DNA from: Borreliella garinii
GTDB taxonomy: Bacteria; Spirochaetota; Spirochaetia; JABEVK01
DNA: 64,000 bases
Reading direction: 5' to 3'
NCBI GenBank assembly: GCA_020720765.1
Contig: DYOB01000001.1
Span: 45,222 to 109,221, forward strand
Part shown: positions 22,904 to 56,772 of the stretch, in pieces
Position numbering within the stretch: position 1 is the stretch's first letter
How the letters are laid out: every line of letters starts with the position of its first letter
The notes under the pieces: model-generated
Database searches by the model: none
What the model was told of the DNA's origin: nothing
Seen by the model: the letters and a program-made list of their open reading frames with translations, nothing else
Program-made: the position numbers and the translations under genes

Positions 22904-24010
22904 TTACTCCCAACTCCACCTCTTGTCGTTTTGATTCTGTTTAAAGAGTCCAAAACCCAAGGTTCCGCAATAGGTGAGGGTGCCCTCTGTGTAGAAGGAG
23001 GTGATTGTTGATGTGCTAATTTCAGCTGACAGGTAGTTATCATCCGAAGCAGTGAGGATAGTGGGATTTTGAAGTTTGGCCCCGCCGGCACCGTCGGATA
23101 CTATTTCATAGTATCCTCCTCCGGTTGATCCTGAAACTTTACTACCGGCTACAAGAGTTGTACCGATCTGATGAATTAAACCCAAGATTAGGGGAGTTTC
23201 TCCGGAGTTCCTTGAATGGGCCGCTGTGTATGTCCAAGTATCACCGTTATCCGTAGAGTAGGCAACTTTTCCCGAAGATAAGGTAACGATTATGTCGGTG
23301 TTTGCAACCGGAAAGTTTTGGTTCTGTGTGAAAGTACCTCCTAAATCGGCACCAAAATTTTTATTTAATAATGTCAAGTTATTAACTGGACCCTTAAAAA
23401 GGCGTCCATCACCGAAGGTCAGGTAGAAGTTGGCACCTTCATTTGAGGCGGCTAGCACAGGCTGAGCAGAACGGGCACCGGCTAGGTTGATGGCTGCATT
23501 GATAACACCTGTACCTATATCCAAGTCGTGGACGTCGTATTCGTAGTTGCTTTTTCTGACGCTTAAATACACACCCACAAGGTTTCCTGTTGTACCGTAA
23601 ATTTCAGTTAGTCCTACAGGTGTACCGTTGACTGATCCGGTGCTCGCAGTCCAGGAAGTACCATTATAATGGAAAAGAGAGGTGTTTTCTCCGTTGGCGT
23701 CTGAAACGATAGCAAAAATCCTACCCGATCCGTTTGCGGTATCTAAAACATACGTTCTGCTTCCCCATTCCGGAGGGGTTAAACGTGACCATTCTGAATC
23801 GCCATCAGTTTTCTTAAACAAGGACCTCGCAGAAACGAATGTCGTGGGTAGGAGGCGTGAAATACCGTTGACAGTCACCGAGTTGTTCAGGCTGTCTCCA
23901 GCGTCCGGAATAAGTTCTTCATTCTCCACCGAATAAAAAATACCGGTGGTCATATAGGTACATGAAGTAAGACCCATAATAAAAGCTACATAGACAAATA
24001 AATTATTCAT
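22904..24010 (-). CDS. Lipoprotein with BNR/Asp-box repeats (beta-propeller-like), start refined to MNNLFVYVAFIMGLTSC
   Basis: Strong RBS GGAGG 4 nt upstream of ATG at 24010; lipobox GLTSC; Asp-box S-x-D-x-G-x-T-W present (YSTDNGDTWTY) plus degenerate copies. Confidence 0.6.
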   Translation of the reverse strand: MNNLFVYVAFIMGLTSCTYMTTGIFYSVENEELIPDAGDSLNNSVTVNGISRLLPTTFVSARSLFKKTDGDSEWSRLTPPEWGSRTYVLDTANGSGRIFAIVSDANGENTSLFHYNGTSWTASTGSVNGTPVGLTEIYGTTGNLVGVYLSVRKSNYEYDVHDLDIGTGVINAAINLAGARSAQPVLAASNEGANFYLTFGDGRLFKGPVNNLTLLNKNFGADLGGTFTQNQNFPVANTDIIVTLSSGKVAYSTDNGDTWTYTAAHSRNSGETPLILGLIHQIGTTLVAGSKVSGSTGGGYYEIVSDGAGGAKLQNPTILTASDDNYLSAEISTSTITSFYTEGTLTYCGTLGFGLFKQNQNDKRWSWE

Positions 24011-24023
24011 AAAACCTCCGAGG

Positions 24024-24647
24024 TTAAAAGTGGAAGGACGCCCCGAGGCTGATTTCGAGAAAATTCCCAAATCTGCTATCGGATTCCTTGATGGTGTAGG
24101 ATGAGGATGCTCCATAAATTTGGGGAACCCAAAGGTAGAAAACATTCAATCCGAATCCCCACTGGGAACTCACATTATAGTACGCTGCTCCGCCAATTTG
24201 AGCGGCGAAGTCAACCTGAAGTGCTTCCTTGAAAGCGCTGAAATTGATCCCTGCACCCAAGGTAACAGGAAAACTAAAGGGCCACAGTTTAAACTCGTAA
24301 GTACCCCTGAATAAAATCGGAACAAGAAAGAGGAGGTTCGCATTTGGAGTCCCGCTAAAGGTCCCCCTTAAGGTCCCACCGATACGCACATTGTTGTTGA
24401 GATAGAATTCTAGGTCGAGACCAAGAAGACCCCCCAGGCTCAGGTTTGCTGGTGAAGTATTGCCGCTGAGGTCCTGAAAGAACAAAGGAAGGTTTGTTCC
24501 CAGGTTGATATTCAGAACCCTGTCCCCCAGAACCCTCTGGTCAAAGGCGAAGACCGGGACTTCAGTGATTTCACTTTCCTGACCATAGGCCGCAAATGAA
24601 CTTAAAATTAAAATTACGTGTAAATACCGTTTCATATTTCTCATCAT
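24024..24647 (-). CDS. Small outer-membrane beta-barrel protein (OmpW/OmpA-like family fold), start refined to MMRNMKRYL
   Basis: Signal peptide MKRYLHVILILSSFAAYGQ, alternating amphipathic strands, C-terminal aromatic residue (…GASFHF); RBS AAGGA upstream. Confidence 0.55.
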   Translation of the reverse strand: MMRNMKRYLHVILILSSFAAYGQESEITEVPVFAFDQRVLGDRVLNINLGTNLPLFFQDLSGNTSPANLSLGGLLGLDLEFYLNNNVRIGGTLRGTFSGTPNANLLFLVPILFRGTYEFKLWPFSFPVTLGAGINFSAFKEALQVDFAAQIGGAAYYNVSSQWGFGLNVFYLWVPQIYGASSSYTIKESDSRFGNFLEISLGASFHF

Positions 24648-24723
24648 TTCTTTTTTCCTTAGAAAAATCAAGCCTCTACTTCTCAAAAGAGCCAAGAGTT
24701 GCTACCATGAGAACAGATTTGAA

Positions 24724-25617
24724 GTGAGGCGGTTACATATGACGACACAATTAATGGATGGTAAACACGTTTCTGCCTTTTTGCAGGAAAAAATACGTGC
24801 AGAAACTACTTCCTTTGCCTTGAAAGGTCAGGTTCCGACCCTCGCCGTTATATTAATAGGAGAGGACCCCGCAAGTGTCTCTTACGTGACGGCTAAGGAG
24901 AAAACTTGCCAGGCCATGGGCATGAGATCCATCGACATTAGGCTGCCTGCCGACGCCCAAGAATCGGAGGTCCTTGCTCAAGTAGAAAAACTCAACCTTG
25001 ACCCGAAGGTTCACGGAATCCTTGTTCAACTCCCTTTGCCTCCATCGATGAATGAAAAAAAAATCCTTCAAAAAATCAGGCCTGAAAAGGATGTTGATGG
25101 CTTTCTTCCAGTTTCCATGGGTAAACTTCTTCTTGGTGAACCTTCGTTTGTTGCTTGCACACCTGCTGGAATACTCGAACTCCTTGACTACTATAAGATT
25201 CCTCTGTCAGGAAAACACGCCGTCGTTGTGGGACGTTCCCTTACTGTAGGCAAGCCGGTGGCCTTACTTCTTTTGGACAGAAACTGCACCGTAACCATCT
25301 GTCATAGCAGAACAGAAAACCTAGGCGGTATTACTTCCCAAGCCGATATCCTCATTGCGGCAGCGGGAAAACCTGAATTGATCCGGGGCTCTATGGTGAA
25401 AGAAGGCGCCGTCGTTATCGATGTCGGTGTCAACCGTATCGCTGATGCATCAAAAGCCAAAGGGTTTCGTCTTGTCGGGGATACCTGTTACGGTGAAATG
25501 TTGGGTAAGGCTTCGTTTATCACCCCTGTTCCCGGTGGAGTGGGACCAATGACCATAGCGCTTCTCATGCGGAATACCCTTCGAGCTTTGGAATTATCGA
25601 TTGTTACCGAAAGCTAA
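24724..25617 (+). CDS. folD: Bifunctional methylenetetrahydrofolate dehydrogenase/cyclohydrolase FolD (ATG at 24739 also possible)
   Basis: Conserved FolD motifs (LDGK, VQLPLP, GRS..VGKP, PGGVGPMT). Confidence 0.9.
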   Translation: MRRLHMTTQLMDGKHVSAFLQEKIRAETTSFALKGQVPTLAVILIGEDPASVSYVTAKEKTCQAMGMRSIDIRLPADAQESEVLAQVEKLNLDPKVHGILVQLPLPPSMNEKKILQKIRPEKDVDGFLPVSMGKLLLGEPSFVACTPAGILELLDYYKIPLSGKHAVVVGRSLTVGKPVALLLLDRNCTVTICHSRTENLGGITSQADILIAAAGKPELIRGSMVKEGAVVIDVGVNRIADASKAKGFRLVGDTCYGEMLGKASFITPVPGGVGPMTIALLMRNTLRALELSIVTES

Positions 25618-25674
25618 CTAACCGGACTCGACAAAAGGACGAAATGTTGTATACTCTTTTAAGGCGGTAAATAG

Positions 25675-27264
25675 GTGGAAAATTTTTCGGCCCAGCAGTT
25701 AGCTTCTCTCGTTAAAAAAAACCCTATGGGACACGTGATTTTTAACGAGTCCAACAAGGCTCTTTATGTCAATGAAGCCCTTCTCACCATAACGGGATTA
25801 AAAAGCGAAGATTTGCTGTATGAAGGTTTTATTCAGAACTTTGTCAAATCCCCCGATCATATCAAGCGCCTTCAGGATAAACTCACATCGGCGTTCTCCG
25901 AATCCTTTGACGACTTAGACATGGTTCTTCTGAGGAAGGACGGCGAAAAGCGGAGTTTTCACTTTTTTGCCTTTCCCTGGAAAGAGGACGGAAAAGATTT
26001 TGTCTGCTTGCTGGTCCAGGATGTCACGGATAAAAAAGCTTTTGAAAGGGTTATTGAAAGCAGTTTTGACAACTTTGTAGATATCACGCTCAAACTTGAC
26101 GAAGCCATGCGTACTATCCAAGAACAAAAGACACAATTGGAAGACTACCAGTCTAAGATGAAGCGTGAGCTTCAGATTGCCACCGGAGTCCAGCGCGCTA
26201 TCATTCCAAGAATATTTCCTAAAATCCCTGGTTTTGACATGTACGGAACCTCGCTTCCGTCGGAGGAACTCGGAGGGGATTATTTTGACTACTTTGTCCT
26301 TGATGATAAAAAGTTAGGTATTCTGATAGCGGACGTTTCGGGCCACGGTGTTCCGAGTTCTTTGATAACCACTATGGTGAAGGCGTATTTCGAGTACTAT
26401 ACCAAGAGGTTTATCGAACCCCAGGAAGTCCTACAGCACGTTAACCATGACATAGCCGGCATCATTATGGACACGGGATTTTACCTCACTGCATACTATG
26501 CTGTTCTGGATCTCGACAAAATGGAGATCAGAGTTGCTTCGGCAGGTCACGATTCCGCCATTTGTTCCATAAAAGGTGAAAATGAAGTCACCAGGCTTGG
26601 AGGTGAAGGTGCGGACGGCACCATACTTGGTATTTTTCAGGACGCCGAGTACCAGGCGGTTACCTACCCCGTTAAGAAGGGGAGTAAGATCATCATTTAT
26701 ACCGATGGAATAACGGAAGCCAGGGCTGATTCAGGCGAGTTTTTCGGAGCGGAAAAGTTAGAGGAATTTTTACAGAAATCCCATGGACTTAGCAGCCGAG
26801 AAACAGGGGAAAAACTTATCGAAGCGGTAGACTCGTTTTATGGAACCAATAAACCCAACGATGATAGAACTTTTGTAGTTTTTGATATTCTTCCGGATGG
26901 GGAGTCGGCCTTCCAATCCGCCGAGTCCCTGAGGCACGGGAAGAAGTTTTTCCTTGAGAAAAATTTCAGGCTGGCTTATTCCGAGTTTATCCATTTCTTG
27001 GAATACGAACCCGAAAATATCGAGGTGAATTATCTAGCTGGACAGTCGGCCAGCCATTTAGGCGATTTCCGACAGGCTGCAGAGCATTTGAACAATACAG
27101 TGAGACTGGATCCAAAGCATATTAAGGCCTACTATTACCTGGGCCTGGCGCATTATAACAATAGGAACCATTCTGAGGCCGCTACCGCTTGGCAGAAAGT
27201 CCTGGAAATGACCGGCGGCTTTAAAGATACAAAAAAACTACTGGATAAAATTTCTAAGAAATAA
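25675..27264 (+). CDS. PAS sensor - PP2C/SpoIIE-type Ser phosphatase - TPR fusion protein (RsbU-like)
   Basis: N-terminal PAS-like segment, PP2C metal-binding aspartates (GGDYFD...DVSGHG...YTDGITE), C-terminal TPR repeats. Confidence 0.75.
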   Translation: MENFSAQQLASLVKKNPMGHVIFNESNKALYVNEALLTITGLKSEDLLYEGFIQNFVKSPDHIKRLQDKLTSAFSESFDDLDMVLLRKDGEKRSFHFFAFPWKEDGKDFVCLLVQDVTDKKAFERVIESSFDNFVDITLKLDEAMRTIQEQKTQLEDYQSKMKRELQIATGVQRAIIPRIFPKIPGFDMYGTSLPSEELGGDYFDYFVLDDKKLGILIADVSGHGVPSSLITTMVKAYFEYYTKRFIEPQEVLQHVNHDIAGIIMDTGFYLTAYYAVLDLDKMEIRVASAGHDSAICSIKGENEVTRLGGEGADGTILGIFQDAEYQAVTYPVKKGSKIIIYTDGITEARADSGEFFGAEKLEEFLQKSHGLSSRETGEKLIEAVDSFYGTNKPNDDRTFVVFDILPDGESAFQSAESLRHGKKFFLEKNFRLAYSEFIHFLEYEPENIEVNYLAGQSASHLGDFRQAAEHLNNTVRLDPKHIKAYYYLGLAHYNNRNHSEAATAWQKVLEMTGGFKDTKKLLDKISKK

Positions 27265-27273
27265 GAGGTAAAA

Positions 27274-27963
27274 GTGGGTCTCAATACCGTCTACACCGTC
27301 CCTGACAGGGTGAAAGTTCAAACTGTTCTCGTGAGCGTATCAGATAAGTCAGGCCTTGAAAATCTTTTTTCGTTACTTTTTGAAGTAAATCCCCTACTTA
27401 AGGTATTTTCCACCGGAGGGACGCTTACAGCCTTAAAAACCGCCTTTCCAACCAGAGTCTCTCAGGTCTATACAGTGGAAGACCTGACGAGTAACCCCGA
27501 AATTCAGGGAGGCTTGGTTAAAACCCTCGATTACAAGATCTATTTGGGACTGCTTACTGAACCTTTTAACCAGGAACACCAGGAATCTCTTAAACAGAAT
27601 AATGTGCCCTCGATCGACCTTGTTGTAGTCAATCTCTACCCCTTTGCCCAGACGGTGGCGCAACCCGGTGCAGACCTTGAAAAAGCCAGGGCGAATATCG
27701 ATATAGGCGGTCCAACCATGATCCGGGCTTCGGCTAAAAATTTCCATCGTGTTTGCGTCCTCAGCAACCCTGAAGATTACCTGGATTTCTCTGCGAGTTT
27801 TCGGGAGAACGGCGGGGAAACCACGTTGGAAACTCGTTTCACCCTTGCTGGGAAGGCGTTTCATCATATAGCTGAATATGACAGAGCCATCGACGAGTAC
27901 CTCGTATCAACAGGTAAAGGCGGGCTTGACGCTTATAAATTTCAAGGATGGACGAATGGCTAA
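27274..27963 (+). CDS. purH: IMP cyclohydrolase (MGS-like N-terminal half of PurH) encoded as a separate gene
   Basis: MGS-like domain motifs (ALVSVSDK-like VLVSVSDKSG, STGGT, GGPTMIRASAKN); stop TAA overlaps ATG of next ORF. Confidence 0.8.
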   Translation: MGLNTVYTVPDRVKVQTVLVSVSDKSGLENLFSLLFEVNPLLKVFSTGGTLTALKTAFPTRVSQVYTVEDLTSNPEIQGGLVKTLDYKIYLGLLTEPFNQEHQESLKQNNVPSIDLVVVNLYPFAQTVAQPGADLEKARANIDIGGPTMIRASAKNFHRVCVLSNPEDYLDFSASFRENGGETTLETRFTLAGKAFHHIAEYDRAIDEYLVSTGKGGLDAYKFQGWTNG

Positions 27964-29203
27964 GAATTTTTCTTCGATTTACCGTGAGATCCAGGATGAA
28001 GATTTTCCCCAGGATATGGAAATCCATATGGGTAAAGGAGAAAATCAACAGATCCTAAGGTATAAAAAAACCACCTGGAAACTTGAAGAAGGCGAAAAAG
28101 GCCTCAGGTACGGAGAGAATCCCGACCAGGGAGCGGCACTTTACCATTTGGTGGACGGGGGTTTTTCGGCTGGAGGGACCAACCATTTTCCCCCGAATTC
28201 CTTTCTTTCATCACAGCCCGAACTTCTACAGTCAGGAAAACACCCGAGCAAGATCAATATAACAGATACAGATGCCGCACTCGGTATTCTCAGGTGGTTT
28301 GATGACCCGGCCTGTGCCATCATAAAACACAACAACCCGTGCGGAGTGGCACTTGCCGGCAGTATCGGCGAAGCTTTTTCAAGAGCATACCATGCTGACA
28401 GGGTGGCTGCGTTTGGCGGGTGTGTGGGCCTCAATAGAATCCTGGAAAAAGAAACCGCTGAAAAAATCCTAGACGGTTACGTCGAAGTAGTTTTAGCCCC
28501 GGATTTCGAGGAAGGAGTTATGGGTTTGTTTGCTAAGAAGCCCAACGTAAGGGTTCTTCGCATTCCAAATATCGAATATCTTCGGAAATGGGCTGATAAG
28601 AAAGTACTTGAATGGAAAACTTTAGCCGACGGCGGCTTGATAGCCCAGTGGAGTTTCGTCCCCCAGGCGCGTAAGCCAGAGGATTTCTATCCCGCTGAAA
28701 CGGTTTACAAGGGACAAACCTATACCTGCGACCGCCAGCCGAACGAATCGGAGTGGAAGGATATTATCTTCGGCTGGCTGGTTGAGAGCGGCGTGACAAG
28801 TAATTCGGTTATCTATGTAAAAGACCAGGTGACCGTCGGTATCGGAACGGGTGAACAGGACCGGGTAGGGGTGGCGGAAATAGCGAGGGATAAGGCTTAC
28901 CGTAAACTTCAGGACAGACTTTCATGGGAGGCTTTCTCACTTAATTTCTCCCAACTTACCGATCAGGATAAAAAGAGAGAAATAGAAAAGTCAGTCAAGG
29001 CGATGAATGGCGGGTTGAAGGGGGCTGTTATGGTTTCAGATGCTTTCTTTCCTTTTCGCGACGGAATTGATATTGGGTTGAACGAGGGGGTGTCGGCCGT
29101 GGTTCAGCCCGGAGGCTCGCTCAGGGATTTCGAATCCATCCAAGCATGCAACGAAAAAAAATCTACAATGGTTTTCACTGGACAGAGAAGTTTTCGCCAT
29201 TAA
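27956..29203 (+). CDS. purH: AICAR formyltransferase (C-terminal half of PurH) as separate gene; start MAKNF with AAGGA RBS, ATGGCTAA overlap with upstream stop
   Basis: AICARFT signature LRYGENPDQ, downstream conserved KHNNPCG and GGS-like regions; ORF opens at 27878 but first ATG with RBS is 27956. Confidence 0.8.
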   Translation: MAKNFSSIYREIQDEDFPQDMEIHMGKGENQQILRYKKTTWKLEEGEKGLRYGENPDQGAALYHLVDGGFSAGGTNHFPPNSFLSSQPELLQSGKHPSKINITDTDAALGILRWFDDPACAIIKHNNPCGVALAGSIGEAFSRAYHADRVAAFGGCVGLNRILEKETAEKILDGYVEVVLAPDFEEGVMGLFAKKPNVRVLRIPNIEYLRKWADKKVLEWKTLADGGLIAQWSFVPQARKPEDFYPAETVYKGQTYTCDRQPNESEWKDIIFGWLVESGVTSNSVIYVKDQVTVGIGTGEQDRVGVAEIARDKAYRKLQDRLSWEAFSLNFSQLTDQDKKREIEKSVKAMNGGLKGAVMVSDAFFPFRDGIDIGLNEGVSAVVQPGGSLRDFESIQACNEKKSTMVFTGQRSFRH

Positions 29204-29234
29204 AATGTAGTATATTAAATATAGGGGGGATATT

Positions 29235-29582
29235 ATGGGTGAAATAGTAGAAAATAAAGGCATTGATAATAAGAGTGTTGTGACAAGGGGTGTAACAAGC
29301 ATCATAGGCGGTGGCTTAGTTTTTTTTGCTTTGGGAATTCTAGGCGCATTCTGGCCGGTTACGCTGGTCTTGGGCTTGGGGCTCTTTGGCGGCGGAATAA
29401 TTATGGCGAGAAACAACGTCAATAAAGTCCTTGCTTTTCTGATGTTAGTCGTGGGTTTTATTATTTTGATACGGTTTATTCCCTTCGTTGGGAATTTCAT
29501 TGATTTAGTACTTTACATCGGAGCTGGAGCTTTGGTTCTTATAGGTGTCTTAACGCTTTTTAATCACTACAACCGGAAGTAA
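29235..29582 (+). CDS. Small integral membrane protein (3-4 TM), hypothetical
   Basis: 115 aa, hydrophobic segments, G-rich RBS AGGGGGGA upstream. Confidence 0.5.
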   Translation: MGEIVENKGIDNKSVVTRGVTSIIGGGLVFFALGILGAFWPVTLVLGLGLFGGGIIMARNNVNKVLAFLMLVVGFIILIRFIPFVGNFIDLVLYIGAGALVLIGVLTLFNHYNRK

Positions 29583-29585
29583 ACG

Positions 29586-29876
29586 ATGAAACCAGGAATG
29601 CGGTTCTTTTTTCTTATAACGACGCTTGTCTACGGGCTTTTCTTTATAGGGTTTAATCTCGGTAAAACCACCGAGATTTCCCTTGTTGTGTGGAATTTTG
29701 AAAAGGCTCCGACCTTTTTTGTCGTGATCACTGCGTTTATACTCGGAATACTTTTCACCTTGCCCTTCCTGCTAATAACAAGTTCTAAAAAACCCCAGGA
29801 AAGGAAAAAACCTTCCGATCCTGCTAAAATTGTCGAAGAACCCGGCAAGGATAAGATTCAAACTGTACATTCCTAG
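29586..29876 (+). CDS. Small membrane protein, LapA/DUF1049-like (2 TM)
   Basis: 96 aa with two TM helices and basic C-terminal tail; 3 nt after previous gene. Confidence 0.5.
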   Translation: MKPGMRFFFLITTLVYGLFFIGFNLGKTTEISLVVWNFEKAPTFFVVITAFILGILFTLPFLLITSSKKPQERKKPSDPAKIVEEPGKDKIQTVHS

Positions 29877-30519
29877 ACTTTCGGTTTGTTTTTTTTGTTT
29901 ATTAGCTTCAACACTTTTTCCTCAAACTACCTCGAACCCACGTATTCAGGTTGAGGATTTTTTGCGCCAGAATCCTCAAGCGGGGGCATTCTGGAACAAC
30001 CCGGATTTTTGGAGAAGCGATGCCGATCAGCTTTGGCGTGTATACCATTCTCGATTGCCTGGTATCGTCGGCGATACTTGGCTAAGGGCACTTTTGCGGG
30101 ACTCCGAATTTAGGGGAGATGGACAAAGGTGGAGGGCTTTGGCTACTGATTTTGTCAAAACTCTCAGTGTTACGCCCTATAAAGATTCACTGTCTTTATT
30201 ACTCTTGGAACAGCATCTTTTTCATGATTTTTCCCTCCCTGATCCGTGGATCCGATCTTGGATGGATTCACCATATAAAGAAGACACACCGCGGGAAAGA
30301 ATTCTCAGGATACTATACCTGGAAAAAACCCAAAATATTCCCGAAGAGTATTACCAGGAAATGATCAATCCTCAACAGCCTTTATGGCACTTATTCCTTC
30401 TTTCAAGGAAAAAAATTTCAATAGCGCCTTTATTTGGTCCCGAGGGTGGCTTTTTTTCAAGTAAGACAAGGTTTCTTGGAGGGATGGAAAGTGAGGACCA
30501 GTTTAACGCGGTGCGTTGA
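29830..30519 (+). CDS. Hypothetical secreted protein; TTG start inferred, overlaps previous ORF by 47 bp
   Basis: Only long ORF in this 650-bp interval; N-terminal hydrophobic segment LSVCFFCLLASTLF; no ATG near start. Confidence 0.3.
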   Translation: MSKNPARIRFKLYIPRLSVCFFCLLASTLFPQTTSNPRIQVEDFLRQNPQAGAFWNNPDFWRSDADQLWRVYHSRLPGIVGDTWLRALLRDSEFRGDGQRWRALATDFVKTLSVTPYKDSLSLLLLEQHLFHDFSLPDPWIRSWMDSPYKEDTPRERILRILYLEKTQNIPEEYYQEMINPQQPLWHLFLLSRKKISIAPLFGPEGGFFSSKTRFLGGMESEDQFNAVR

Positions 30520-41550: not shown

Positions 41551-42981
41551 ATGGAAACACGTCAAATTTATAAAAATATTTCCCCGCTTGACCATAGGTA
41601 TTCCCAATCAAGCCCGGAACTCTTTGAAGCGTTGTCTAAACGCCTTTCGGAAGAGGCTTCCATTTATTACTGTGCTTGCTGCGAATCAAGTTTGCTCAAG
41701 GTCCACCTAAGACATTTCTTTTCTCAAGAAGACCAAAATCGTTTTTTTCCAATACTGGAATCTCTAGCCTCCCAGGTGTCTCCAGCAGAGGTCTATGAAG
41801 AAGAAGCAAAAACCCGTCATAATATTCGGGCGCTTGTCAACGTTATCAAACGAAAAGTCCCCCCTGAACTCTCGGCTTACGTCCATTTGGGCGCGACAAG
41901 CGTAGATATTCTGGATACAGCAACCGCCTTAAAAATCAGAGATACGGTAAAGGATGTCTTGGTTCCTTTACTGAAAAAAAATCTTATGGTTCTTGCCCAG
42001 CTTTCCTTGAAGAACTCTGGAACCCCGCAGACAGGCAGGACTCATGGGCAATGGGCGGTACCCCTGACTTTTGGATACGCTGTCGCCGAGTATGTTTCAA
42101 GACTAGGGAAATCTTTGCGTGAAATCTTAAGACTTTCAGATGACCTACGCGGGAAATGGTCCGGTGCTGTCGGAGCATACAACGCCCTCTCTATGATGAG
42201 TTCCGACCCGAGGTCTTTGGAAAAAGAATACTTGGATGAACTTGGATTAAAACCCAGCGATCATTCTACACAACTCGTTGAACCCGAATATGTTCTGCGC
42301 CTGCTCTTAGAGATCAACGTGGCTTTCGGGATTCTTGCCAACCTGGCTGACGACCTGAGGCACCTTCAAAGGTCCGAGATCCAAGAGGTGCGTGAATTTT
42401 TCGCTGAGGACCAGGTAGGTTCTTCCACCATGCCGCAAAAGCGCAACCCCTGGAACTGCGAACATATCAAAAGCCTATGGAAGGAGTTCAGCCCTCGTGT
42501 TTTGACTTTCTTTATGGATCAGATCAGCGAGCATCAGAGGGATTTGACCAACTCTGCGAGCGGACGTTTTATAGCAGAATTTCTCACAGGCTTTGCTTTG
42601 GCATCCTCGAGAATGCTCAGTGTCCTGGAGGGCCTTTTCGTCGACGCTGAGAGAATGATGAAAACACTTCTTCAGTCCGGTGATTCTGTTCTGGCGGAGG
42701 CTGTATATATTCTTCTGGCCTTAGAGGCGGATGCCCATGCCCACGAGACAGTCAGGCTTGTGACCCTAGAAATGGAGAAGACGAAAAAATCCCTTGTGCA
42801 GGTTCTTCAGGAACACCCGGATGCATGGGAGAGACTGAACAATGGACTCAAGCGTGTCGGACGCGGCGACGCACAAGAATTTTTCTCCAGTCCTGAAAAG
42901 TATTTAGGGTTGGCAAAAGAAAGGGCAATAGAGATTTCCAACGAGTGGATGATATGGGTAGAATCCCAAGGGGGGCAATGA
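41551..42981 (+). CDS. purB: Adenylosuccinate lyase
   Basis: Fumarate-lyase family signature GSSTMPQKRNP and PurB-type N-terminal region. Confidence 0.85.
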   Translation: METRQIYKNISPLDHRYSQSSPELFEALSKRLSEEASIYYCACCESSLLKVHLRHFFSQEDQNRFFPILESLASQVSPAEVYEEEAKTRHNIRALVNVIKRKVPPELSAYVHLGATSVDILDTATALKIRDTVKDVLVPLLKKNLMVLAQLSLKNSGTPQTGRTHGQWAVPLTFGYAVAEYVSRLGKSLREILRLSDDLRGKWSGAVGAYNALSMMSSDPRSLEKEYLDELGLKPSDHSTQLVEPEYVLRLLLEINVAFGILANLADDLRHLQRSEIQEVREFFAEDQVGSSTMPQKRNPWNCEHIKSLWKEFSPRVLTFFMDQISEHQRDLTNSASGRFIAEFLTGFALASSRMLSVLEGLFVDAERMMKTLLQSGDSVLAEAVYILLALEADAHAHETVRLVTLEMEKTKKSLVQVLQEHPDAWERLNNGLKRVGRGDAQEFFSSPEKYLGLAKERAIEISNEWMIWVESQGGQ

Positions 42982-44417
42982 TGCAGATACCAGAGACCTT
43001 AAGTTACGATGATGTTTTACTCGTACCCTCGTACGCCGATTTCCTTCCCACGGAGGCCGATGTACGTACTAGGGTGGCGGGTAATCTTTTCCTCAATGTC
43101 CCTGTATTATCAGCGGCCATGGATACTGTCACCGAAGACCAGCTGGCCATAGCGCTCGCACTCGAAGGCGGTGCAGGGATAATCCACCGTAACCTAAGCC
43201 CCGAGGTTCAGGCTGAACACGTGAGCAGGGTGAAACGCTACCTGAATTGGGTTATCGAAAACCCCATTGTCATTGAGAAAGGAAAGACAGTCGACGAGGT
43301 ATATAAGCTCATGGACCGCTATAAGGTTTCGGGCTTGCCGGTCGTCGATAAGGGGATCCTTGTCGGGATTATTACGGGGCGCGACATGCGGTTCTGCTCC
43401 GATTATTCCCAGCTTGTTGAAAATGTTATGACGCCTAATCCTGTTGTAGAAACCCCACCGGTAAGCATGAATACCGCCCAGGATAAATTCAACAAATATA
43501 AAATCGAGAAGCTTCCTGTTGTAGACGATCAAAAAAGGCTTATCGGCCTTATAACAGTTAAGGATATGGAAAAGCACCAGCAGTTTCCGCAAGCCTCGAC
43601 CGACGAGAATGGACGGTTGATAGTCGGGGCTGCAGTGTCTCCGCAGGACTACCAGAAAAGGCTTCCACTTTTAATGGAAAGCCGTGTCGACTTCATCGTT
43701 ATCGATACCGCGCACGGGGATAGCCTCAACGTGATGAAAACCATAGAAGCCATTAAAAAACAGTCAAAAGTCCTTATTATTGCAGGAAATGTTGCCACCG
43801 CCGAAGGCACGAGGCGGCTGATCGAGGCTGGAGCCGATGCGGTGAAGGTAGGAGTCGGCCCCGGTAGTATCTGCACGACACGTATCGTTGCGGGTATCGG
43901 TATGGCCCAGTTCAGCGCGGTATGGGAATGTTCGGAAGAAGGAGCAAAGCACAACATTCCCATCATAGCAGACGGCGGGATAAAGTTTTCCGGAGATATC
44001 ACTAAAGCGATAGGTGCGGGGGCTTCCACCGTGATGATAGGAAATCTTTTTGCAGGCTTAAAGGAAGCTCCAGGCCGAGAAATTATTTTCGAGGGCAGGT
44101 ACTTCAAGGAATATCGCGGTATGGGTTCGATCAGTGCTGTCAAAGACGGAGGAGGCGATAGGTACAATATGAACGTAGGATCTCCTGTGGTTCCCGAGGG
44201 AATCGAGGGGAGGGTTCCCTACAAGGGTGAACTTAAGAGCTTCCTCCACCAGCTTGTTATGGGGTTGAAAAAAGGCATGGGTTATACCGGATGCAAAACG
44301 ATTGACGAACTCAGGCTTTACAAAAAATTTGTGAAGATCACCTCTGCAGGTCTGAGGGAAAGCCACGCACACGACGTGACCATCACCCAAGAGTCCCCCA
44401 ACTATTCCAGGAATTAG
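42978..44417 (+). CDS. guaB: IMP dehydrogenase with CBS pair (start set at MMQIPE, ATGA overlap with purB stop; ORF opens at 42945)
   Basis: IMPDH active-site loop GVGPGSICTTR, CBS domains, C-terminal flap. Confidence 0.9.
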   Translation: MMQIPETLSYDDVLLVPSYADFLPTEADVRTRVAGNLFLNVPVLSAAMDTVTEDQLAIALALEGGAGIIHRNLSPEVQAEHVSRVKRYLNWVIENPIVIEKGKTVDEVYKLMDRYKVSGLPVVDKGILVGIITGRDMRFCSDYSQLVENVMTPNPVVETPPVSMNTAQDKFNKYKIEKLPVVDDQKRLIGLITVKDMEKHQQFPQASTDENGRLIVGAAVSPQDYQKRLPLLMESRVDFIVIDTAHGDSLNVMKTIEAIKKQSKVLIIAGNVATAEGTRRLIEAGADAVKVGVGPGSICTTRIVAGIGMAQFSAVWECSEEGAKHNIPIIADGGIKFSGDITKAIGAGASTVMIGNLFAGLKEAPGREIIFEGRYFKEYRGMGSISAVKDGGGDRYNMNVGSPVVPEGIEGRVPYKGELKSFLHQLVMGLKKGMGYTGCKTIDELRLYKKFVKITSAGLRESHAHDVTITQESPNYSRN

Positions 44418-44426
44418 GAGCTTAAA

Positions 44427-45650
44427 ATGAATATAGCAGTCGTCGGCGCCCAATGGGGTGATGAAGGTAAAGGGAAAATCGTGGATTTTCTGGCGGAGCA
44501 GGCTAAGGTCGTCGTAAGGTTCTCAGGAGGTGCCAACGCAGGGCACACGATCCAAGCAGGCGGGCAAACCTACAAACTCCACCTTGTCCCCTCCGGGATT
44601 ATCCACGAGGATAAACTCGCAGTCCTTGGAACGGGTATGGTCATTGACCCTGAGGCCCTTTTTGCAGAACTCGAAACCATCGAAAAACAGGGTGTCAAAT
44701 GGCAGGGGCGTATTTGGCTGTCTGACAGGGCGCATATAGTACTGCCGAGCTATAAGGCCATGGATAAGGCCATGGAAGCAAGAAGATTAAAACCCTTGGG
44801 TACGACGGGCCGAGGGATTGGTGTGAGTTACGCCATGAAAGCCCAGCGGGACGGCTTGAGGGCAGGTGATATTTTTACTCCTGTTTACGACACACTTCCA
44901 GCGGACGATAAAATATTTCTTGAACCTTTCAGGGAGAGACTAAAAACCCTTCTTGTTGACCTCCCCCATTTTCTCCGCGATTACGAATCTATGAACGTCC
45001 TTTTTGAGGGGGCCCAAGGGGTCTTACTCGACCTCGATTTAGGAACCTACCCTTATGTATCTTCGGGCAACAGCAGTGCCTCCGGTGCTTGTTCCGGAGG
45101 CGGTATAGGTCCAAGGCACCTGGATAAGGTCTACGGGGTCTTTAAGGCTTACAGTACAAGGGTTGGAAATGGTCCTTTCCCTTCCGAATTCCTTGATGAG
45201 CGGGACGGCAACCTGGGGCATCAGATCCGTGAGATAGGCAATGAATACGGTGTTACCACAGGTAGGCCGAGACGCTGCGGATACCTAGACTTGGTGGCTC
45301 TAAGGTACGCATGCTGGACCAATTCTTTTGATTCTTTAGTTCTCACCCACCCTGATGTCTACGACGGGTTCGATGAAATCTTTGTTTGTACAGCCTATAG
45401 GGTCAATGGCGAGGAATCGGATATTTTTCCGTCAACCGTTTATGGCTTGGAAAAAGCTGAACCCGTTCTTAAACGATTCCCGGGGTGGAAAAAATCTCTT
45501 GGGACCTGTACTTCTTTCGAAGGTCTCCCTGCCGAAGCTCTGGACTATGTGAAATTTATTGAAGAGTATACGCAGACACCCATCGAAGTTCTCAGTGTCG
45601 GTCCCGATCGTAACCAGACCTTTTTCAGGAAACAGCCTTGGATAAAATAG
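44427..45650 (+). CDS. purA: Adenylosuccinate synthetase
   Basis: N-terminal GAQWGDEGKGKIVD P-loop, GTTGRGIG motif. Confidence 0.95.
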   Translation: MNIAVVGAQWGDEGKGKIVDFLAEQAKVVVRFSGGANAGHTIQAGGQTYKLHLVPSGIIHEDKLAVLGTGMVIDPEALFAELETIEKQGVKWQGRIWLSDRAHIVLPSYKAMDKAMEARRLKPLGTTGRGIGVSYAMKAQRDGLRAGDIFTPVYDTLPADDKIFLEPFRERLKTLLVDLPHFLRDYESMNVLFEGAQGVLLDLDLGTYPYVSSGNSSASGACSGGGIGPRHLDKVYGVFKAYSTRVGNGPFPSEFLDERDGNLGHQIREIGNEYGVTTGRPRRCGYLDLVALRYACWTNSFDSLVLTHPDVYDGFDEIFVCTAYRVNGEESDIFPSTVYGLEKAEPVLKRFPGWKKSLGTCTSFEGLPAEALDYVKFIEEYTQTPIEVLSVGPDRNQTFFRKQPWIK

Positions 45651-47200
45651 TCATTCTGGACTTTGGGGGGCAGACTTGCCAACTGATTGGCAGGCGTCTT
45701 CGGGAGGGGGGGTATTATGCCGAAATCGTTCCCCACGATACCGAATTGACCCAGACCTTTTTAAGCTCTGTGAAAGGTGTGATCCTTTCAGGGTCCCCTT
45801 ACTCGGTCTATGAAAAAGAATCTCTCAAGGCCAGTATTTTATTTAAAGACTTGGAAGTTCCTGTGATGGGAATTTGTTATGGAATCCAGTGGCTCACCAC
45901 GGAAGACGGTGGACTGGTGGAAAGTATGCCCCAGAGGGAATACGGAAAGATGGAAGTCGCCTGCGCAGGACCAGCCTCAGGGCACTCACAAATGTTCTTA
46001 AAAGGTCTTCCGGAAAAGTGGGCGACTTGGATGAGCCACGGGGACAGTATCGTCAAACCTGGTTTGAATTGGGAGGTGATCGGGTGGAGTCAAAACCATC
46101 CGGCGGTTTTAACCCATAAAACCAAGCCTTGGTTCGGGGTTCAATTCCATCCCGAGATCAGCCACAGCGATTTTGGGAATCAGATTCTCTGGAACTTCGC
46201 CGAGATTTGTCAAATGAAAAAAGATTGGAACGCCCAGACTTTTATCAGACTCGAACAGGAGAAGGTTTTGAAGCAGGTTGGCAGTAAACCTGTTCTGCTC
46301 CTTATCAGCGGCGGCGTCGATTCCAGCGTTGCGGCAGCCCTGCTCTTAAAAACCCTGGACCCGGAAAAAGTTTTTCTGATGTATATCGATACCGGTCTTA
46401 TGCGGGAAAATGAAACTGCGGAAGTCGCTAATAATCTCAGGTCTCTCGGTGCCAAACATCTAACCCTGGTGGATGCAAGGGTGCGGTTTCTTGAAGCGCT
46501 CAAAGGGATAAGTGATCCCGAACTTAAACGAAAAACTATCGGTGATACCTTTATCCTTGTACAGGAGGAGGAGACCCGGAAATTAGGTTTAAGCGGGGAT
46601 GAACTTCTGGCCCAAGGCACCCTGTATACCGACCTGATAGAAAGCGGAAGGGGCGTGGGGAAGAAGGCCCACGTCATAAAAACCCACCACAACGTCTCAA
46701 GCCCCCTTGTGGAAGCTAAACGCAAGTCGGGCATGATCGTCGAGCCTTTATCCATGCTTTACAAAGATGAGGTCAGGGATATGGGGAGGTCGTTGGGACT
46801 TTCACCCTCTCTAGTGGATCGACACCCCTTTCCAGGGCCGGGTCTCGGGGTAAGAATTTTGGGAGAAATAACGGAACAAAAACTCTCTATCCTTCGCAGA
46901 GCTGACGCAATTTTTATTCAGGAGCTGAGAAACCGGAATCTCTACAAGGATATCTGGCAGGCCTTCTGTGTACTGCTCTCCGTTCAGAGTGTAGGAGTAA
47001 CAGGAGACGCACGAAAATACGGGTACGTCCTGGCTATTCGGGCGGTGACTTCCCTCGACGGGATGAGTGCGGACGTTTATACCTTTCCCATGAAAGACTT
47101 GCTTGAAATTTCGACATTGATAGTCAATTCTGTCACAGAAATCGGCAGGGTGGTTTATGATACGACTTCCAAGCCGCCGGCAACCATCGAATGGGAATAA
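45638..47200 (+). CDS. guaA: GMP synthase (glutamine-hydrolysing)
   Basis: GATase domain (ILDFGGQ, GICYG catalytic Cys), PP-loop SGGVDSSV, C-terminal dimerisation domain. Confidence 0.9.
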   Translation: MDKIVILDFGGQTCQLIGRRLREGGYYAEIVPHDTELTQTFLSSVKGVILSGSPYSVYEKESLKASILFKDLEVPVMGICYGIQWLTTEDGGLVESMPQREYGKMEVACAGPASGHSQMFLKGLPEKWATWMSHGDSIVKPGLNWEVIGWSQNHPAVLTHKTKPWFGVQFHPEISHSDFGNQILWNFAEICQMKKDWNAQTFIRLEQEKVLKQVGSKPVLLLISGGVDSSVAAALLLKTLDPEKVFLMYIDTGLMRENETAEVANNLRSLGAKHLTLVDARVRFLEALKGISDPELKRKTIGDTFILVQEEETRKLGLSGDELLAQGTLYTDLIESGRGVGKKAHVIKTHHNVSSPLVEAKRKSGMIVEPLSMLYKDEVRDMGRSLGLSPSLVDRHPFPGPGLGVRILGEITEQKLSILRRADAIFIQELRNRNLYKDIWQAFCVLLSVQSVGVTGDARKYGYVLAIRAVTSLDGMSADVYTFPMKDLLEISTLIVNSVTEIGRVVYDTTSKPPATIEWE

Positions 47201-53557: not shown

Positions 53558-53770
53558 ATGGAAAACCTTATAAAAGGTCTTATTGTTTCAGGACTCGGAA
53601 TCTTCTGGGTCTATTCTTTTCTGATTATCATGATACTTTCGATGAAAGTCTTTTCATTCGCCGTTAATAAGGTCCTAAAATTGAAAGAAAAAAATAACCA
53701 GCTCTCCTCAAAACCCGCAGTCGCTGCAGCAGCTTGGTCCCTCCACCACCATAAGGAAACACAGGAATGA
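53558..53770 (+). CDS. oadG: Oxaloacetate decarboxylase gamma subunit
   Basis: 70-aa single-TM protein immediately upstream of and overlapping oadA (ATGA). Confidence 0.65.
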   Translation: MENLIKGLIVSGLGIFWVYSFLIIMILSMKVFSFAVNKVLKLKEKNNQLSSKPAVAAAAWSLHHHKETQE

Positions 53771-55554
53771 AAAAACATATCCACACAATGATCACCGCCT
53801 TTCGGGATGGGTTCCAGAGTTGTTACGGTGCCAGGGTTTTAACCGATGATTTTCTGCCTGCGGTGACCGAGGCCGTGAATTCGGGTTTAACCCACTTGGA
53901 GATAGGCGGAGGGGCTCGTTTTCAGAGTCTCTACTTTTATTGCAACGAAGACGCTTTTACCATGATGGACCGTGTCCGAGCCGCTGCGGGTCCCGAGGCA
54001 AACCTTCAAACCCTCAGCAGGGGGATCAATGTCGTCGGTTTGGATAGCCAGCCTAAGGAGATCATCAAGCTCCACGCCGAACTTTTTAAAAAACACGGTG
54101 TGACGACCATCCGTAACTTTGACGCACTCAACGATGTGGACAACCTTCTTTACAGCGCAAAGTGCATCAAGGATGCCGGGTTAAAACATGAAGTTTGTAT
54201 AACAGTGATGGAATTGCCCCCTGGAAACAGTGGGGCCCACAACGAAACTTTTTATACAGCGGTTCTTAAAAAAATCCTGGATTCGGGTCTGTCCTTTGAT
54301 TCTGTCTGTTATAAAGACGCAACAGGAACTTTGACGCCGGCCACTGTCTTTTCAAGCCTTAAAGCCGCCCGGAACCTGCTGGGTGATAAGGTCCGCCTGG
54401 CTTTCCACAACCATGAAACAGCGGGAATCGGTACGCTTTCCTACCGTGCAGCCCTCGATGCAGGTGTAGATCAGATCGACCTGAGTCTCGCCCCTGTCAG
54501 CGGAGGAACCTGCCAGACCGACGTTGTGGTGATGTGGCATGCCTTGAGGGGCACGGATTACGACCTTGGACTGGATATTCAAAAAATCATGAAGCTCGAA
54601 GAGAACTTCAAGGAGAGCATGAAAGGTTATTTTCTGCCGCCTGAAGCGACCAGGGTTGAACCCCTGATCCCTTTTAGTCCGATGCCGGGCGGCGCTCTAA
54701 CTGCAAATACACAGATGCTCAGGGACAACGGCCTTATGGACCGCTACCCCGAGGTTATAGCAGCGATGGAGGAAGTCGTTGCCAAAGGCGGCTACGGCAC
54801 GAGCGTGACGCCGGTCAGCCAGTTTTATTTCCAGCAAGCATTTTCCAACGTGATGCATGGGCCGTGGAAAAAAATCAGCGACGGATACGGCCGTATGGTT
54901 CTCGGTTACTTCGGAAAGACACCTGTTCCACCCGACCCGGCCGTGGTGAAGCTCGCTTCGGAACAATTGAAGCTCCCGCAGACTTCGGAATCTGCTTTGG
55001 AACTCACTGAAAAAGACCCTGAAAAAAGCTTGGATAAGGCCCGTTTGATGTTAAAAAACGCTTTCCTGCCCGAGACCCAGGAAAATCTTTTTATCGCCGC
55101 AACCTGCCTCGAAAAAGGCATCAGTTTTCTTAAAGGCGAGGCAAAGGTGAACGTCAGAAAGAGAATGAAGTCTGACGGGCATTATTCCGTGACCTCGGGC
55201 GGCAAAAGTTTCAAGGTTCTTGTGAAGGAGAATTCAGTTATCGTAGACGGGGAGGAAATCCAGGTTTCCCAAGAAGGTTCAATGTCCGCACCACAAGTGT
55301 CCAGCCACCATCCCGCGGTCCAAAGCGGTGACGGTGAAGGCACTGGAATTACCGCACCGTTACCGGGTCTTGTGATCCGGTTTCTTAAAAAGCCTGGTGA
55401 AAAGATCAATAAAGGAGATATGGTCCTTGTCCTTGAATCCATGAAGGAAGAACACACCATACCATCGGGTTCATCGGGTACGTTAAAATCCTGGCTTGTT
55501 GCCCAGGGCGATCAGGTAAGCGCGGGGCATAAACTCGCCGAGTTGGGGGAATAA
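53767..55554 (+). CDS. oadA: Oxaloacetate decarboxylase alpha subunit (carboxyltransferase + biotin carrier domain)
   Basis: TIM-barrel carboxyltransferase domain (pyruvate carboxylase 5S-like), C-terminal biotinyl domain with lysine in LESMKEE context. Confidence 0.85.
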   Translation: MKKHIHTMITAFRDGFQSCYGARVLTDDFLPAVTEAVNSGLTHLEIGGGARFQSLYFYCNEDAFTMMDRVRAAAGPEANLQTLSRGINVVGLDSQPKEIIKLHAELFKKHGVTTIRNFDALNDVDNLLYSAKCIKDAGLKHEVCITVMELPPGNSGAHNETFYTAVLKKILDSGLSFDSVCYKDATGTLTPATVFSSLKAARNLLGDKVRLAFHNHETAGIGTLSYRAALDAGVDQIDLSLAPVSGGTCQTDVVVMWHALRGTDYDLGLDIQKIMKLEENFKESMKGYFLPPEATRVEPLIPFSPMPGGALTANTQMLRDNGLMDRYPEVIAAMEEVVAKGGYGTSVTPVSQFYFQQAFSNVMHGPWKKISDGYGRMVLGYFGKTPVPPDPAVVKLASEQLKLPQTSESALELTEKDPEKSLDKARLMLKNAFLPETQENLFIAATCLEKGISFLKGEAKVNVRKRMKSDGHYSVTSGGKSFKVLVKENSVIVDGEEIQVSQEGSMSAPQVSSHHPAVQSGDGEGTGITAPLPGLVIRFLKKPGEKINKGDMVLVLESMKEEHTIPSGSSGTLKSWLVAQGDQVSAGHKLAELGE

Positions 55555-56772
55555 ATGGATTTTTTATCGGCACTTTCAGAAATCTGGAAAAGCACGGGCA
55601 TCGTGGGCTTTATTCATGAAGGCGGTTACCTGAACCTTATTATGATAGGTATCAGTCTGCTACTGATTTACCTTGCAGTCGCAAAAAACTTCGAACCTCT
55701 CCTCCTCCTACCTATAGGTTTCGGGGGGATCCTCGCCAACCTGCCCTTAACGGGTATTCTCACCCATACTATCAGCATGATCGACCCCAGCGGGACGGCG
55801 CCGTGGGCAGTGAGCGTTCTCGAATACGGCGGTTTTCTCGGACAGATCTACGACTTCGGCCTTCAGAGCGGGCTCTTTCCCATCATGATCTTTATGGGGG
55901 TCGGTGCCATGACCGACTTCGGGCCGTTGATCGCCAACCCCATCACCGCACTCCTCGGTGGAGCCGCCCAGATAGGAATCTTTGGAGCGCTTACCGGTGC
56001 CCTTGCCCTGACTATGACAGGGTTGTTCCAATTCGATCTTCGGGACGCCGCCAGCATCGGAATCATCGGGGGTGCGGACGGACCTACGGCCATCTACCTC
56101 ACCACCCGGCTTTCTAAGGATCTCCTTGGTGCCGTGGCGGTCGCAGCTTACAGTTATATGGCTTTGGTACCCATCATCCAGCCCCCCATTATGAGGGCCT
56201 TGACGACGAAAAAAGAACGCGCAATCAAGATGGATCAATTGAGAACCGTGAGCAAGACCGAAAAGGTACTATTCCCTATCCTGGTCCTGATCCTGACGGG
56301 TCTTTTTCTCCCGAGCGCTGTTCCTTTGATCGGTGCTCTTATGTTTGGAAACCTTGCCCGCGAGACAGGTGTTGTTCAAAGGCTTTCCGAAACCATGCAG
56401 AACTCCCTGATCAACATTGTAACGATATTTCTCGGGCTCTCTGTGGGCTCCAAACTCCAGGCCGAGGTGTTTCTGAGGCCGGAAACCTTAGCCATCCTTG
56501 TTTTGGGACTCTTTGCCTTTTCCATGGGTACAGCAGGTGGGGTTCTGATGGCAAAACTCATGAACCTTTTTCTGAAAAAGAAAATCAATCCTCTGATCGG
56601 GGCGGCCGGTGTTTCAGCGGTTCCCATGGCTGCTCGTGTTGTGAACAAGGTGGGGTTGGAGACCGACCCCCAGAATTACCTTCTCATGCACGCTATGGGT
56701 CCCAATGTTTCGGGGGTTATTGGAAGCGCTGTGGCAGCCGGCCTGATGCTTTCGATTGTTCCTTTGATGTAA
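55555..56772 (+). CDS. oadB: Oxaloacetate decarboxylase beta subunit (Na+ pump)
   Basis: Polytopic membrane protein with OadB-family conserved helices; follows oadA by 0 nt. Confidence 0.85.

Follow-up and report, generated by a model that had tools for sequence, protein, structure and literature searches.

When the two catalytic domains of PurH appear in different reading frames, is the gene broken, is the sequence wrong, or are there two genes? This question is raised by a 64,000-nucleotide stretch of spirochete DNA (assembly GCA_020720765.1, contig DYOB01000001.1, positions 45,222 to 109,221; the whole stretch is called the window and numbered from its first letter), in which an open reading frame (ORF1) with the inosine monophosphate (IMP) cyclohydrolase domain of PurH overlaps a second (ORF2) with the formyltransferase domain for 5-aminoimidazole-4-carboxamide ribonucleotide (AICAR). 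An initial annotation had taken the two for intact, translationally coupled genes as opposed to a pseudogene. Standalone orthologues, adjacency of the two genes in 65 genomes and a conserved overlap bear this out: ORF1 and ORF2 are two intact genes, with neither a frameshifted pseudogene nor a sequencing error behind the break, and their coupling is probable. We further consider it very likely that the locus is a pair of the standalone genes named purJ (IMP cyclohydrolase) and purV (AICAR formyltransferase) by Cruz et al. (2019, Genome Biol Evol 11:1235; PMC6486802), with the two catalytic domains of PurH made as separate polypeptides.

Two genes or one frameshifted purH

The elements of the locus are the following.

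27274..27963, + strand: purJ (ORF1), GTG start, TAA stop at 27961-63, 229 amino acids (aa); putative standalone IMP cyclohydrolase, MGS-like domain of PurH
27956..29203, + strand: purV (ORF2), ATG start at 27956-27958, 415 aa; putative standalone 10-formyl-tetrahydrofolate (10-formyl-THF)-dependent AICAR formyltransferase
27956..27963, + strand: purV/purJ start/stop overlap ATGGCTAA, 8 nucleotides (nt), read directly from the sequence
27944..27948, + strand: Shine-Dalgarno-like AAGGA of purV, within the purJ coding region, with a 7-nt spacer to the ATG, read from the sequence
27263..27268, + strand: Shine-Dalgarno-like AAGAGG of purJ, lying over the preceding gene's stop codon, 5 nt from the GTG

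The ORF upstream of purJ ends at 27264, and ORF2 is read in the +1 frame relative to ORF1, its ATG lying 3 nt before the purJ stop codon. A TAA overlapping an ATG, with AAGGA 7 nt upstream, had been noted at first inspection and is indeed present in the sequence; the start codon, initially placed at 27957, is corrected to 27956, as translation from 27957 meets 19 stop codons. Three gene callers likewise pick 27956. An in-frame ATG at 27878 was considered as the purV start and rejected, since the N-termini of 19 homologues all align at 27956. The locus thereby shows the geometry of a coupled pair, with a start codon overlapping the upstream stop and a Shine-Dalgarno motif inside purJ, and a GGAG/AGGA-type motif was seen upstream of purV in most of the related loci whose upstream sequences were inspected.

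Adjacent frames and an overlap of a mere 8 nt have the look of a single indel, and purH is fused in most bacteria, so that a frameshifted purH, either a pseudogene or a truly fused gene with a 1-nt error of sequencing or assembly, has to be weighed. Among the best 120 database matches for each ORF, however, the homologues of ORF1 are standalone proteins of 216-235 aa with 51-60% identity, and those of ORF2 are standalone proteins of 409-422 aa with 58-69% identity and 98-100% query coverage; orthologues at 52-69% identity end and start at the same positions as the two ORFs. An alignment of ORF2 homologues, searched against a single genome from each species, returned 80 loci, 76 of them with enough upstream DNA to be assessed, and in 65 of these 76 purV is immediately preceded, on the same strand, by a gene of the purJ type. 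Across the 65 loci the spacing between the two genes varies between -8 and +516 nt, with a median of 31 (81 nt in Desulfoluna butyratoxydans), and takes all three relative frames, which a single indel cannot explain: these are separate genes in 65 species, with gaps of up to 516 nt.

The closest comparisons point the same way. Two syntenic spirochete relatives (L089 and L090) carry the order folD - PAS/SpoIIE - purJ (229 aa) - purV (414 aa), encode proteins 67-69% identical to those of the window, and keep the 8-nt overlap as TTGGCTAA, with a TTG start, although the surrounding DNA has diverged; looking for the split in related spirochetes, as had been proposed at the outset, thus recovers both the split and the overlap. 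An 8-nt overlap is also found in a Desulfobacterales locus (L083). Furthermore, the sequence on either side of the break is conserved in its own frame: the C-terminal tail of PurJ is real coding sequence with a nearly invariant Tyr221, and the N-terminus of PurV keeps Tyr9, Phe17, Glu22, Gln32 and Trp41. Proteins identical to both ORFs are also called in assemblies from JGI, Logan and NCBI, an agreement that is weak by itself as the reads may be shared. Taken with these observations, a frameshifted purH is effectively refuted.

A second way of recovering a single product would be programmed ribosomal frameshifting at the overlap, giving a fused PurH-like protein. The +1 frame difference would suit it, as would the retention of the overlap in three members of the lineage, but no slippery heptamer precedes the TAA (GGATGGACGAATGGCTAA), purV has a start codon and a Shine-Dalgarno motif of its own, and in most relatives intergenic DNA in any frame separates the genes, from which it follows that the family works as two proteins. 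We therefore regard programmed frameshifting as exceedingly improbable.

With two genes in place, the ATG 3 nt before the purJ stop codon and the Shine-Dalgarno motif belonging to purV make re-initiation on purV possible: ribosomes ending purJ could begin anew on purV, which would favour matched amounts of both proteins. The geometry of the junction suggests that purJ and purV are probably translationally coupled in this way.

Domain completeness, active sites and predicted function

The two ORFs divide PurH between them without loss. ORF1 matches PF02142 (MGS-like, E 2.6e-10), covers the first 60 positions of PF01808 (AICARFT_IMPCHas) and corresponds to positions 3-196 of the 510-position PurH model NF002049 (205 bits), while ORF2, which carries LRYGENPDQ, matches PF01808 at positions 68-311 (E 3.7e-61) and NF002049 at positions 210-510 (286 bits). 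These domain matches confirm that the two domains lie in different frames, and they place the break where the initial annotation had put it, in the interdomain linker, between positions 196 and 210 of NF002049. Against a fused relative of 550 aa (P0287), residues 16-215 of ORF1 align with residues 3-197, and residues 3-415 of ORF2 align continuously with residues 199-549; from these two alignments, the ORFs tile the fused protein with nothing missing or duplicated. The roughly 25 N-terminal residues of ORF2 that had been taken as extra are in fact the conserved interdomain linker (compare ...GRFPRTLNLNF...MRYGENSHQ in E. coli) together with a 12-residue insertion, within the same continuous alignment to P0287. 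In the linker of P0287 itself (…YLVRMGR, then MEDLSSMYRTV…), we observed a match to the end of PurJ and the start of PurV.

Solved structures of PurH/ATIC are matched by each ORF over the expected half, those of the N-terminal domain by ORF1 with E values of 1e-33 to 7.5e-40. An AlphaFold2 model of PurV (predicted local distance difference test score, pLDDT, 82.5; predicted template modelling score, pTM, 0.86) begins with a short helix followed by beta-strands, and its significant matches in the PDB (E <= 0.001) are to PurH/ATIC chains only, including Mycobacterium tuberculosis PurH 4a1o (E 8e-29; template modelling, TM, score 0.64). As a side observation, among solved structures ORF1 is matched best by a bifunctional PurH chain, chain DA of PDB 9ou7, in an entry deposited as a Methanosarcina acetivorans 50S ribosomal subunit dimer, where a purine enzyme is unexpected.

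Catalytic and substrate-contacting residues were taken from the lists of Brown et al. (PMC3261824), with human numbering for IMP cyclohydrolase. Lys66, Tyr104, Asp125 and Lys137 are all kept in ORF1; among the 120 PurJ homologues, the Lys66 loop motif GGLVKTL is found in every one and the motifs of the other three residues in 118-120. In general, the motifs GGLVKTL, NLYPF, NIDIGG and ASAKN and the phosphate-binding SVSDK and STGGT are shared by ORF1 and 115-120 of these homologues. The AICAR formyltransferase half is equally well preserved: R51, Y52, K124, H125, N283, R303, F364/F365 and R411 of ORF2, invariant in a 20-sequence family alignment, match the listed Arg208, Tyr209, Lys267, His268, SN-motif Asn, GxxxRV Arg, FFPF Phe and C-terminal Arg, and RYGENP, KHNNPCG, TSNS, EQDRV, FFPFRD and the C-terminal RSF[KR]H occur in 117-120 of the 120 PurV homologues.

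On this basis PurV would transfer the formyl group of 10-formyl-THF to AICAR, giving formyl-AICAR (FAICAR), and PurJ would cyclise FAICAR to IMP, with the genes arranged like the domains of fused purH, the IMP cyclohydrolase leading. That the two could function as separate proteins is made plausible by three earlier results: both halves of avian PurH are active separately (PMC3261824), the IMP cyclohydrolase site lies within one monomer (PMC9525906), and the naturally unfused AF1811 of Archaeoglobus fulgidus, itself active, can complement an E. coli strain devoid of the IMP cyclohydrolase function of purH (PMC6797443). We infer both enzymatic activities and the replacement of PurH by the pair in de novo purine synthesis.

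Several points weigh against this assignment. The PurJ active-site loop is remodelled across the family, with an Arg that is near-universal in fused PurH replaced by Leu, so that unaltered kinetics and specificity of PurJ are an assumption. Both ORFs fall short of every curated NCBIfam cut-off: against the bifunctional PurH models (TIGR00355/NF002049) the two score 205 and 286 bits where the cut-off is 402, with a stop codon between the domains, and against the equivalog NF005492/PRK07106 ORF2 scores 112.3 bits where it is 415, its best stretch being only the C-terminal ~80 residues. The literature searched yielded no PurJ/PurV pair of this family that had been characterised biochemically in bacteria. 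A short gap takes the place of the overlap in most members of the family, which bears on coupling, and the remaining de novo purine pathway of the organism lies outside the 64-kb window.

The remodelled loop is one reason for asking whether PurJ and PurV are a functionally diverged pair of paralogues, with another substrate, formyl donor or mode of regulation, and not a plain replacement of PurH. In place of the canonical GGRVKTLHPxIHGG, the PurJ loop reads QGGLVKTLD[FY][KR]IYLG (ORF1 residues 78-92, ~27505-27549), with the changes Arg64 to Leu, His69 to Asp, Pro70 to Phe/Tyr, His73 to Tyr and Gly74 to Leu. Of 51 fused representatives, 49 have Arg at position 64, where ORF1 and all 120 PurJ homologues have Leu. 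In ATIC, loop residues 56-71 move upon ligand binding (PMC9525906). Compared with E. coli PurH, PurV for its part has several insertions, one of them of ~35 residues at positions 315-349, and the failure of both proteins to reach an NCBIfam cut-off would also fit divergence. Against this, every residue reported as catalytic or substrate-contacting is retained, the recurrent association with folD or fhs fits dependence on 10-formyl-THF, and P0287, the closest fused relative found and the sole fused protein with Leu64, shows that the substitution also occurs in a fused protein. In the survey of Cruz et al., moreover, the pair is found mainly in genomes without purH (PMC6486802). We consequently give little credence to a change of function, and favour a purJ-purV pair with the activities of PurH.

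A milder form of the same idea is that the pair is more than a PurH cut in half. In PurV, what was the linker persists as a conserved N-terminal helix and hairpin, and PurJ has its conserved C-terminal tail; together with the loop, which is invariant in the family and closes over the substrate, these elements could mediate a non-covalent complex or alter catalysis or regulation, a suggestion we offer tentatively and hold to be rather unlikely.

The activities could also be the usual ones, with the pair serving only to recycle AICAR, for example from histidine synthesis, to IMP in a genome lacking the earlier de novo steps. De novo purine synthesis is missing in many host-associated spirochetes, and purF, purD, purN, purL, purM, purE, purK and purC were not seen among the genes identified across the window. 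The initial annotation, which had favoured an AICAR-recycling or salvage role on the grounds that only purH and purB are visible nearby, was right in that no other de novo pur gene is seen, but purB heads a purB-guaB-purA-guaA cluster and folD lies upstream, and these neighbours, folD and the genes converting IMP to the adenosine and guanosine monophosphates (AMP and GMP), fit either role. The window is moreover a small part of the genome, and pur genes are often scattered; in the survey of Cruz et al., 63% of purV, purJ and purO genes do not adjoin other pur genes, and the authors propose that the pair, present mostly in genomes without purH, replaces it in the de novo pathway (PMC6486802). 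A recycling-only role is possible, at odds that we judge to be low, and nothing in the window supports it.

Relation to known systems and distribution

The arrangement is already known, and the window locus adds an uncultured spirochete lineage to the distribution of purJ/purV. As in the pairs of Cruz et al., standalone homologues of the two PurH domains are found together; in that survey of 1,403 genomes, purV and purJ occurred together in 44 of 1,266 bacterial genomes, generally without purH, and were the rule in Desulfobacterales, Desulfovibrionales, Thermodesulfobacteria, Prevotellaceae and Fervidobacteriaceae (PMC6486802). It had been stated at first that a natural split is uncommon, which is fair in terms of frequency and overstated as a novelty, given that a description of the pair dates from 2019 and that several groups have it as the rule. 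The nearest non-spirochete homologues of both ORFs are from Desulfobacterales, an order in which the pair is reported as universal (PMC6486802). The text consulted of that survey names Spirochaetes only for purO, not for purV/purJ, and defers the phylogeny of purV/purJ (PMC6486802). Unlike the pairs described there, the present one has an uncultured spirochete as its host, and its 8-nt overlap and folD - PAS/SpoIIE context are specific to the lineage of the window. Our scan of 80 loci places the family in many metagenome-assembled genomes of Spirochaetia.

Compared with bifunctional PurH/ATIC (E. coli b4006, human ATIC), the pair has the same two folds, catalytic residues and N-to-C domain order and differs in being two polypeptides, in Leu at position 64 and in the PurV insertions. 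Standalone AICAR formyltransferase-type proteins are also described by NF005492/PRK07106 (390 aa), which ORF2 resembles in its organisation; its score of 112 bits against a cut-off of 415 indicates a different lineage, and at least two lineages of standalone AICAR formyltransferase therefore exist. For the other half, ForH (PDB 6nko, 216 aa) is comparable in size and likewise a standalone, MGS-like protein of the IMP cyclohydrolase type, matched by ORF1 with E 1.3e-23 and more distant from it than the N-terminal domains of housekeeping PurH. ForH belongs to a nucleoside-antibiotic (formycin) pathway. AF1811 of A. fulgidus (PurH2-type) is an unfused IMP cyclohydrolase of the PurH N-domain type, whose activity shows that this domain can function by itself (PMC6797443); it differs in being archaeal and in being thought to partner formate-dependent PurP-like proteins and not PurV (PMC3261824).

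Not every purV has a purJ beside it. In eleven loci (L013, L018, L026, L059, L060, L066, L076, L080, L084, L087 and L088) no purJ lies within 3 kb of purV; these belong to Kiritimatiellia, Verrucomicrobiota, Lentisphaerota/Victivallales, Latescibacterota and one member of the Spirochaetia. In addition, a further fused relative of 600 aa (P0256) has a PurV-like C-terminal domain joined to a degenerate N-terminal domain, with RVRSL for RVKTL and DVYDF for NLYPF; P0256 and P0287 are both relevant to deciding between fission and an ancestral split. We considered a recent horizontal transfer from Desulfobacterota and saw no sign of one, as a rough neighbour-joining tree without support values groups the sequences largely by phylum. 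In the same rough tree, again without support values, the clade of the window falls near the base of the family.

The significance of the locus lies mainly in its correct annotation, since two frames could be misread as a purH pseudogene and the organism wrongly judged unable to make IMP. NCBI records name PurV-type proteins of ~416 aa 'IMP cyclohydrolase', which is the activity of the partner, and PurJ-type proteins of ~226 aa 'hypothetical protein'; this looks like a systematic annotation gap, and a curated model appears to be lacking. The pair also provides a natural example for asking why most organisms fuse IMP cyclohydrolase and AICAR formyltransferase, and opens no new question.

Gene neighbourhood

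Three further features of the window concern folate or purine metabolism or adjoin the pair.

24724..25617, + strand: folD, methylene-THF dehydrogenase/methenyl-THF cyclohydrolase (PF00763, PF02882), predicted to make the 10-formyl-THF used by PurV
25675..27264, + strand: PAS/SpoIIE (PP2C-type phosphatase)/TPR protein, 529 aa, from Pfam matches, 9 nt upstream of purJ
41551..47200, + strand: purB-guaB-purA-guaA cluster (Lyase_1 + ASL_C; IMPDH; Adenylsucc_synt; GATase + GMP_synt_C)

folD is the second gene upstream of purJ, on the same strand, and the tight spacing of 57 nt, 9 nt and -8 nt suggests that folD, the PAS/SpoIIE gene, purJ and purV are co-transcribed as one operon. The PAS/SpoIIE gene, which is probably in the same operon as purJ, occupies the same position in both syntenic relatives (7725-9317 in L089 and 2346-3938 in L090). 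Searches for regulatory signals at this locus gave nothing above background: with Rfam gathering thresholds, no regulatory RNA was found in the whole window, including the ZTP/pfl or purine riboswitch or leader sought upstream of folD, purJ and purV; Rfam returned a single chance-level match in 24000-29400, and a promoter and terminator scan of 24400-30000 gave counts no higher than in shuffled sequence.

The association with folate genes extends beyond the window. In 9 related loci, belonging to Spirochaetia, Verrucomicrobiota, Latescibacterota and Lentisphaerota, folD is found upstream of purV, or of purJ and purV, on the same strand, the Spirochaetia among them with or without an adjacent purJ, and one locus (L013) has the order fhs-folD-purV. 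Recurrent neighbours of this kind are expected for an enzyme that uses 10-formyl-THF. Three Spirochaetia loci (L061, L068 and L069) have folD ~0.7 kb upstream of purV, with room for purJ only in between. A gene for a FolE2-type GTP cyclohydrolase I (PF02649) was also observed near purV or purJ in L084 (2167-2955, + strand), L088, L009, L014 and L030; L084 has the order folD - folE2-like - purV, the folE2-like gene holding the slot taken by purJ in other Spirochaetia. The idea that this enzyme substitutes for the missing purJ was rejected as unsupported, since the same gene lies near L009, L014 and L030, loci which do have purJ, and it is probably a folate-synthesis neighbour.

Downstream, the purB-guaB-purA-guaA cluster begins 12 kb from purV, and its genes, which overlap or abut, encode adenylosuccinate lyase, IMP dehydrogenase, adenylosuccinate synthetase and GMP synthase. 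The cluster would convert IMP to AMP and GMP and is uninformative on the source of AICAR. Just downstream of purV are two small hydrophobic ORFs on the + strand, at 29235-29582 (115 aa) and 29586-29876 (96 aa), neither with a Pfam match; they are kept in position in the two syntenic relatives (113/91 aa in L089 and 115/86 aa in L090).

The assignment of the locus to a spirochete is supported by neighbouring genes for CfpA, TP_0126 and pallilysin-like and TP_0747-like proteins. Elsewhere in the window, subunits of an oxaloacetate decarboxylase (OAD) Na+ pump (gamma, alpha and beta) are encoded at 53767-56772 on the + strand, and on the corresponding JGI contig the DNA immediately preceding the window carries V-type ATPase genes; together, the OAD pump and V-type ATPase genes suggest sodium-based energetics in this spirochete.

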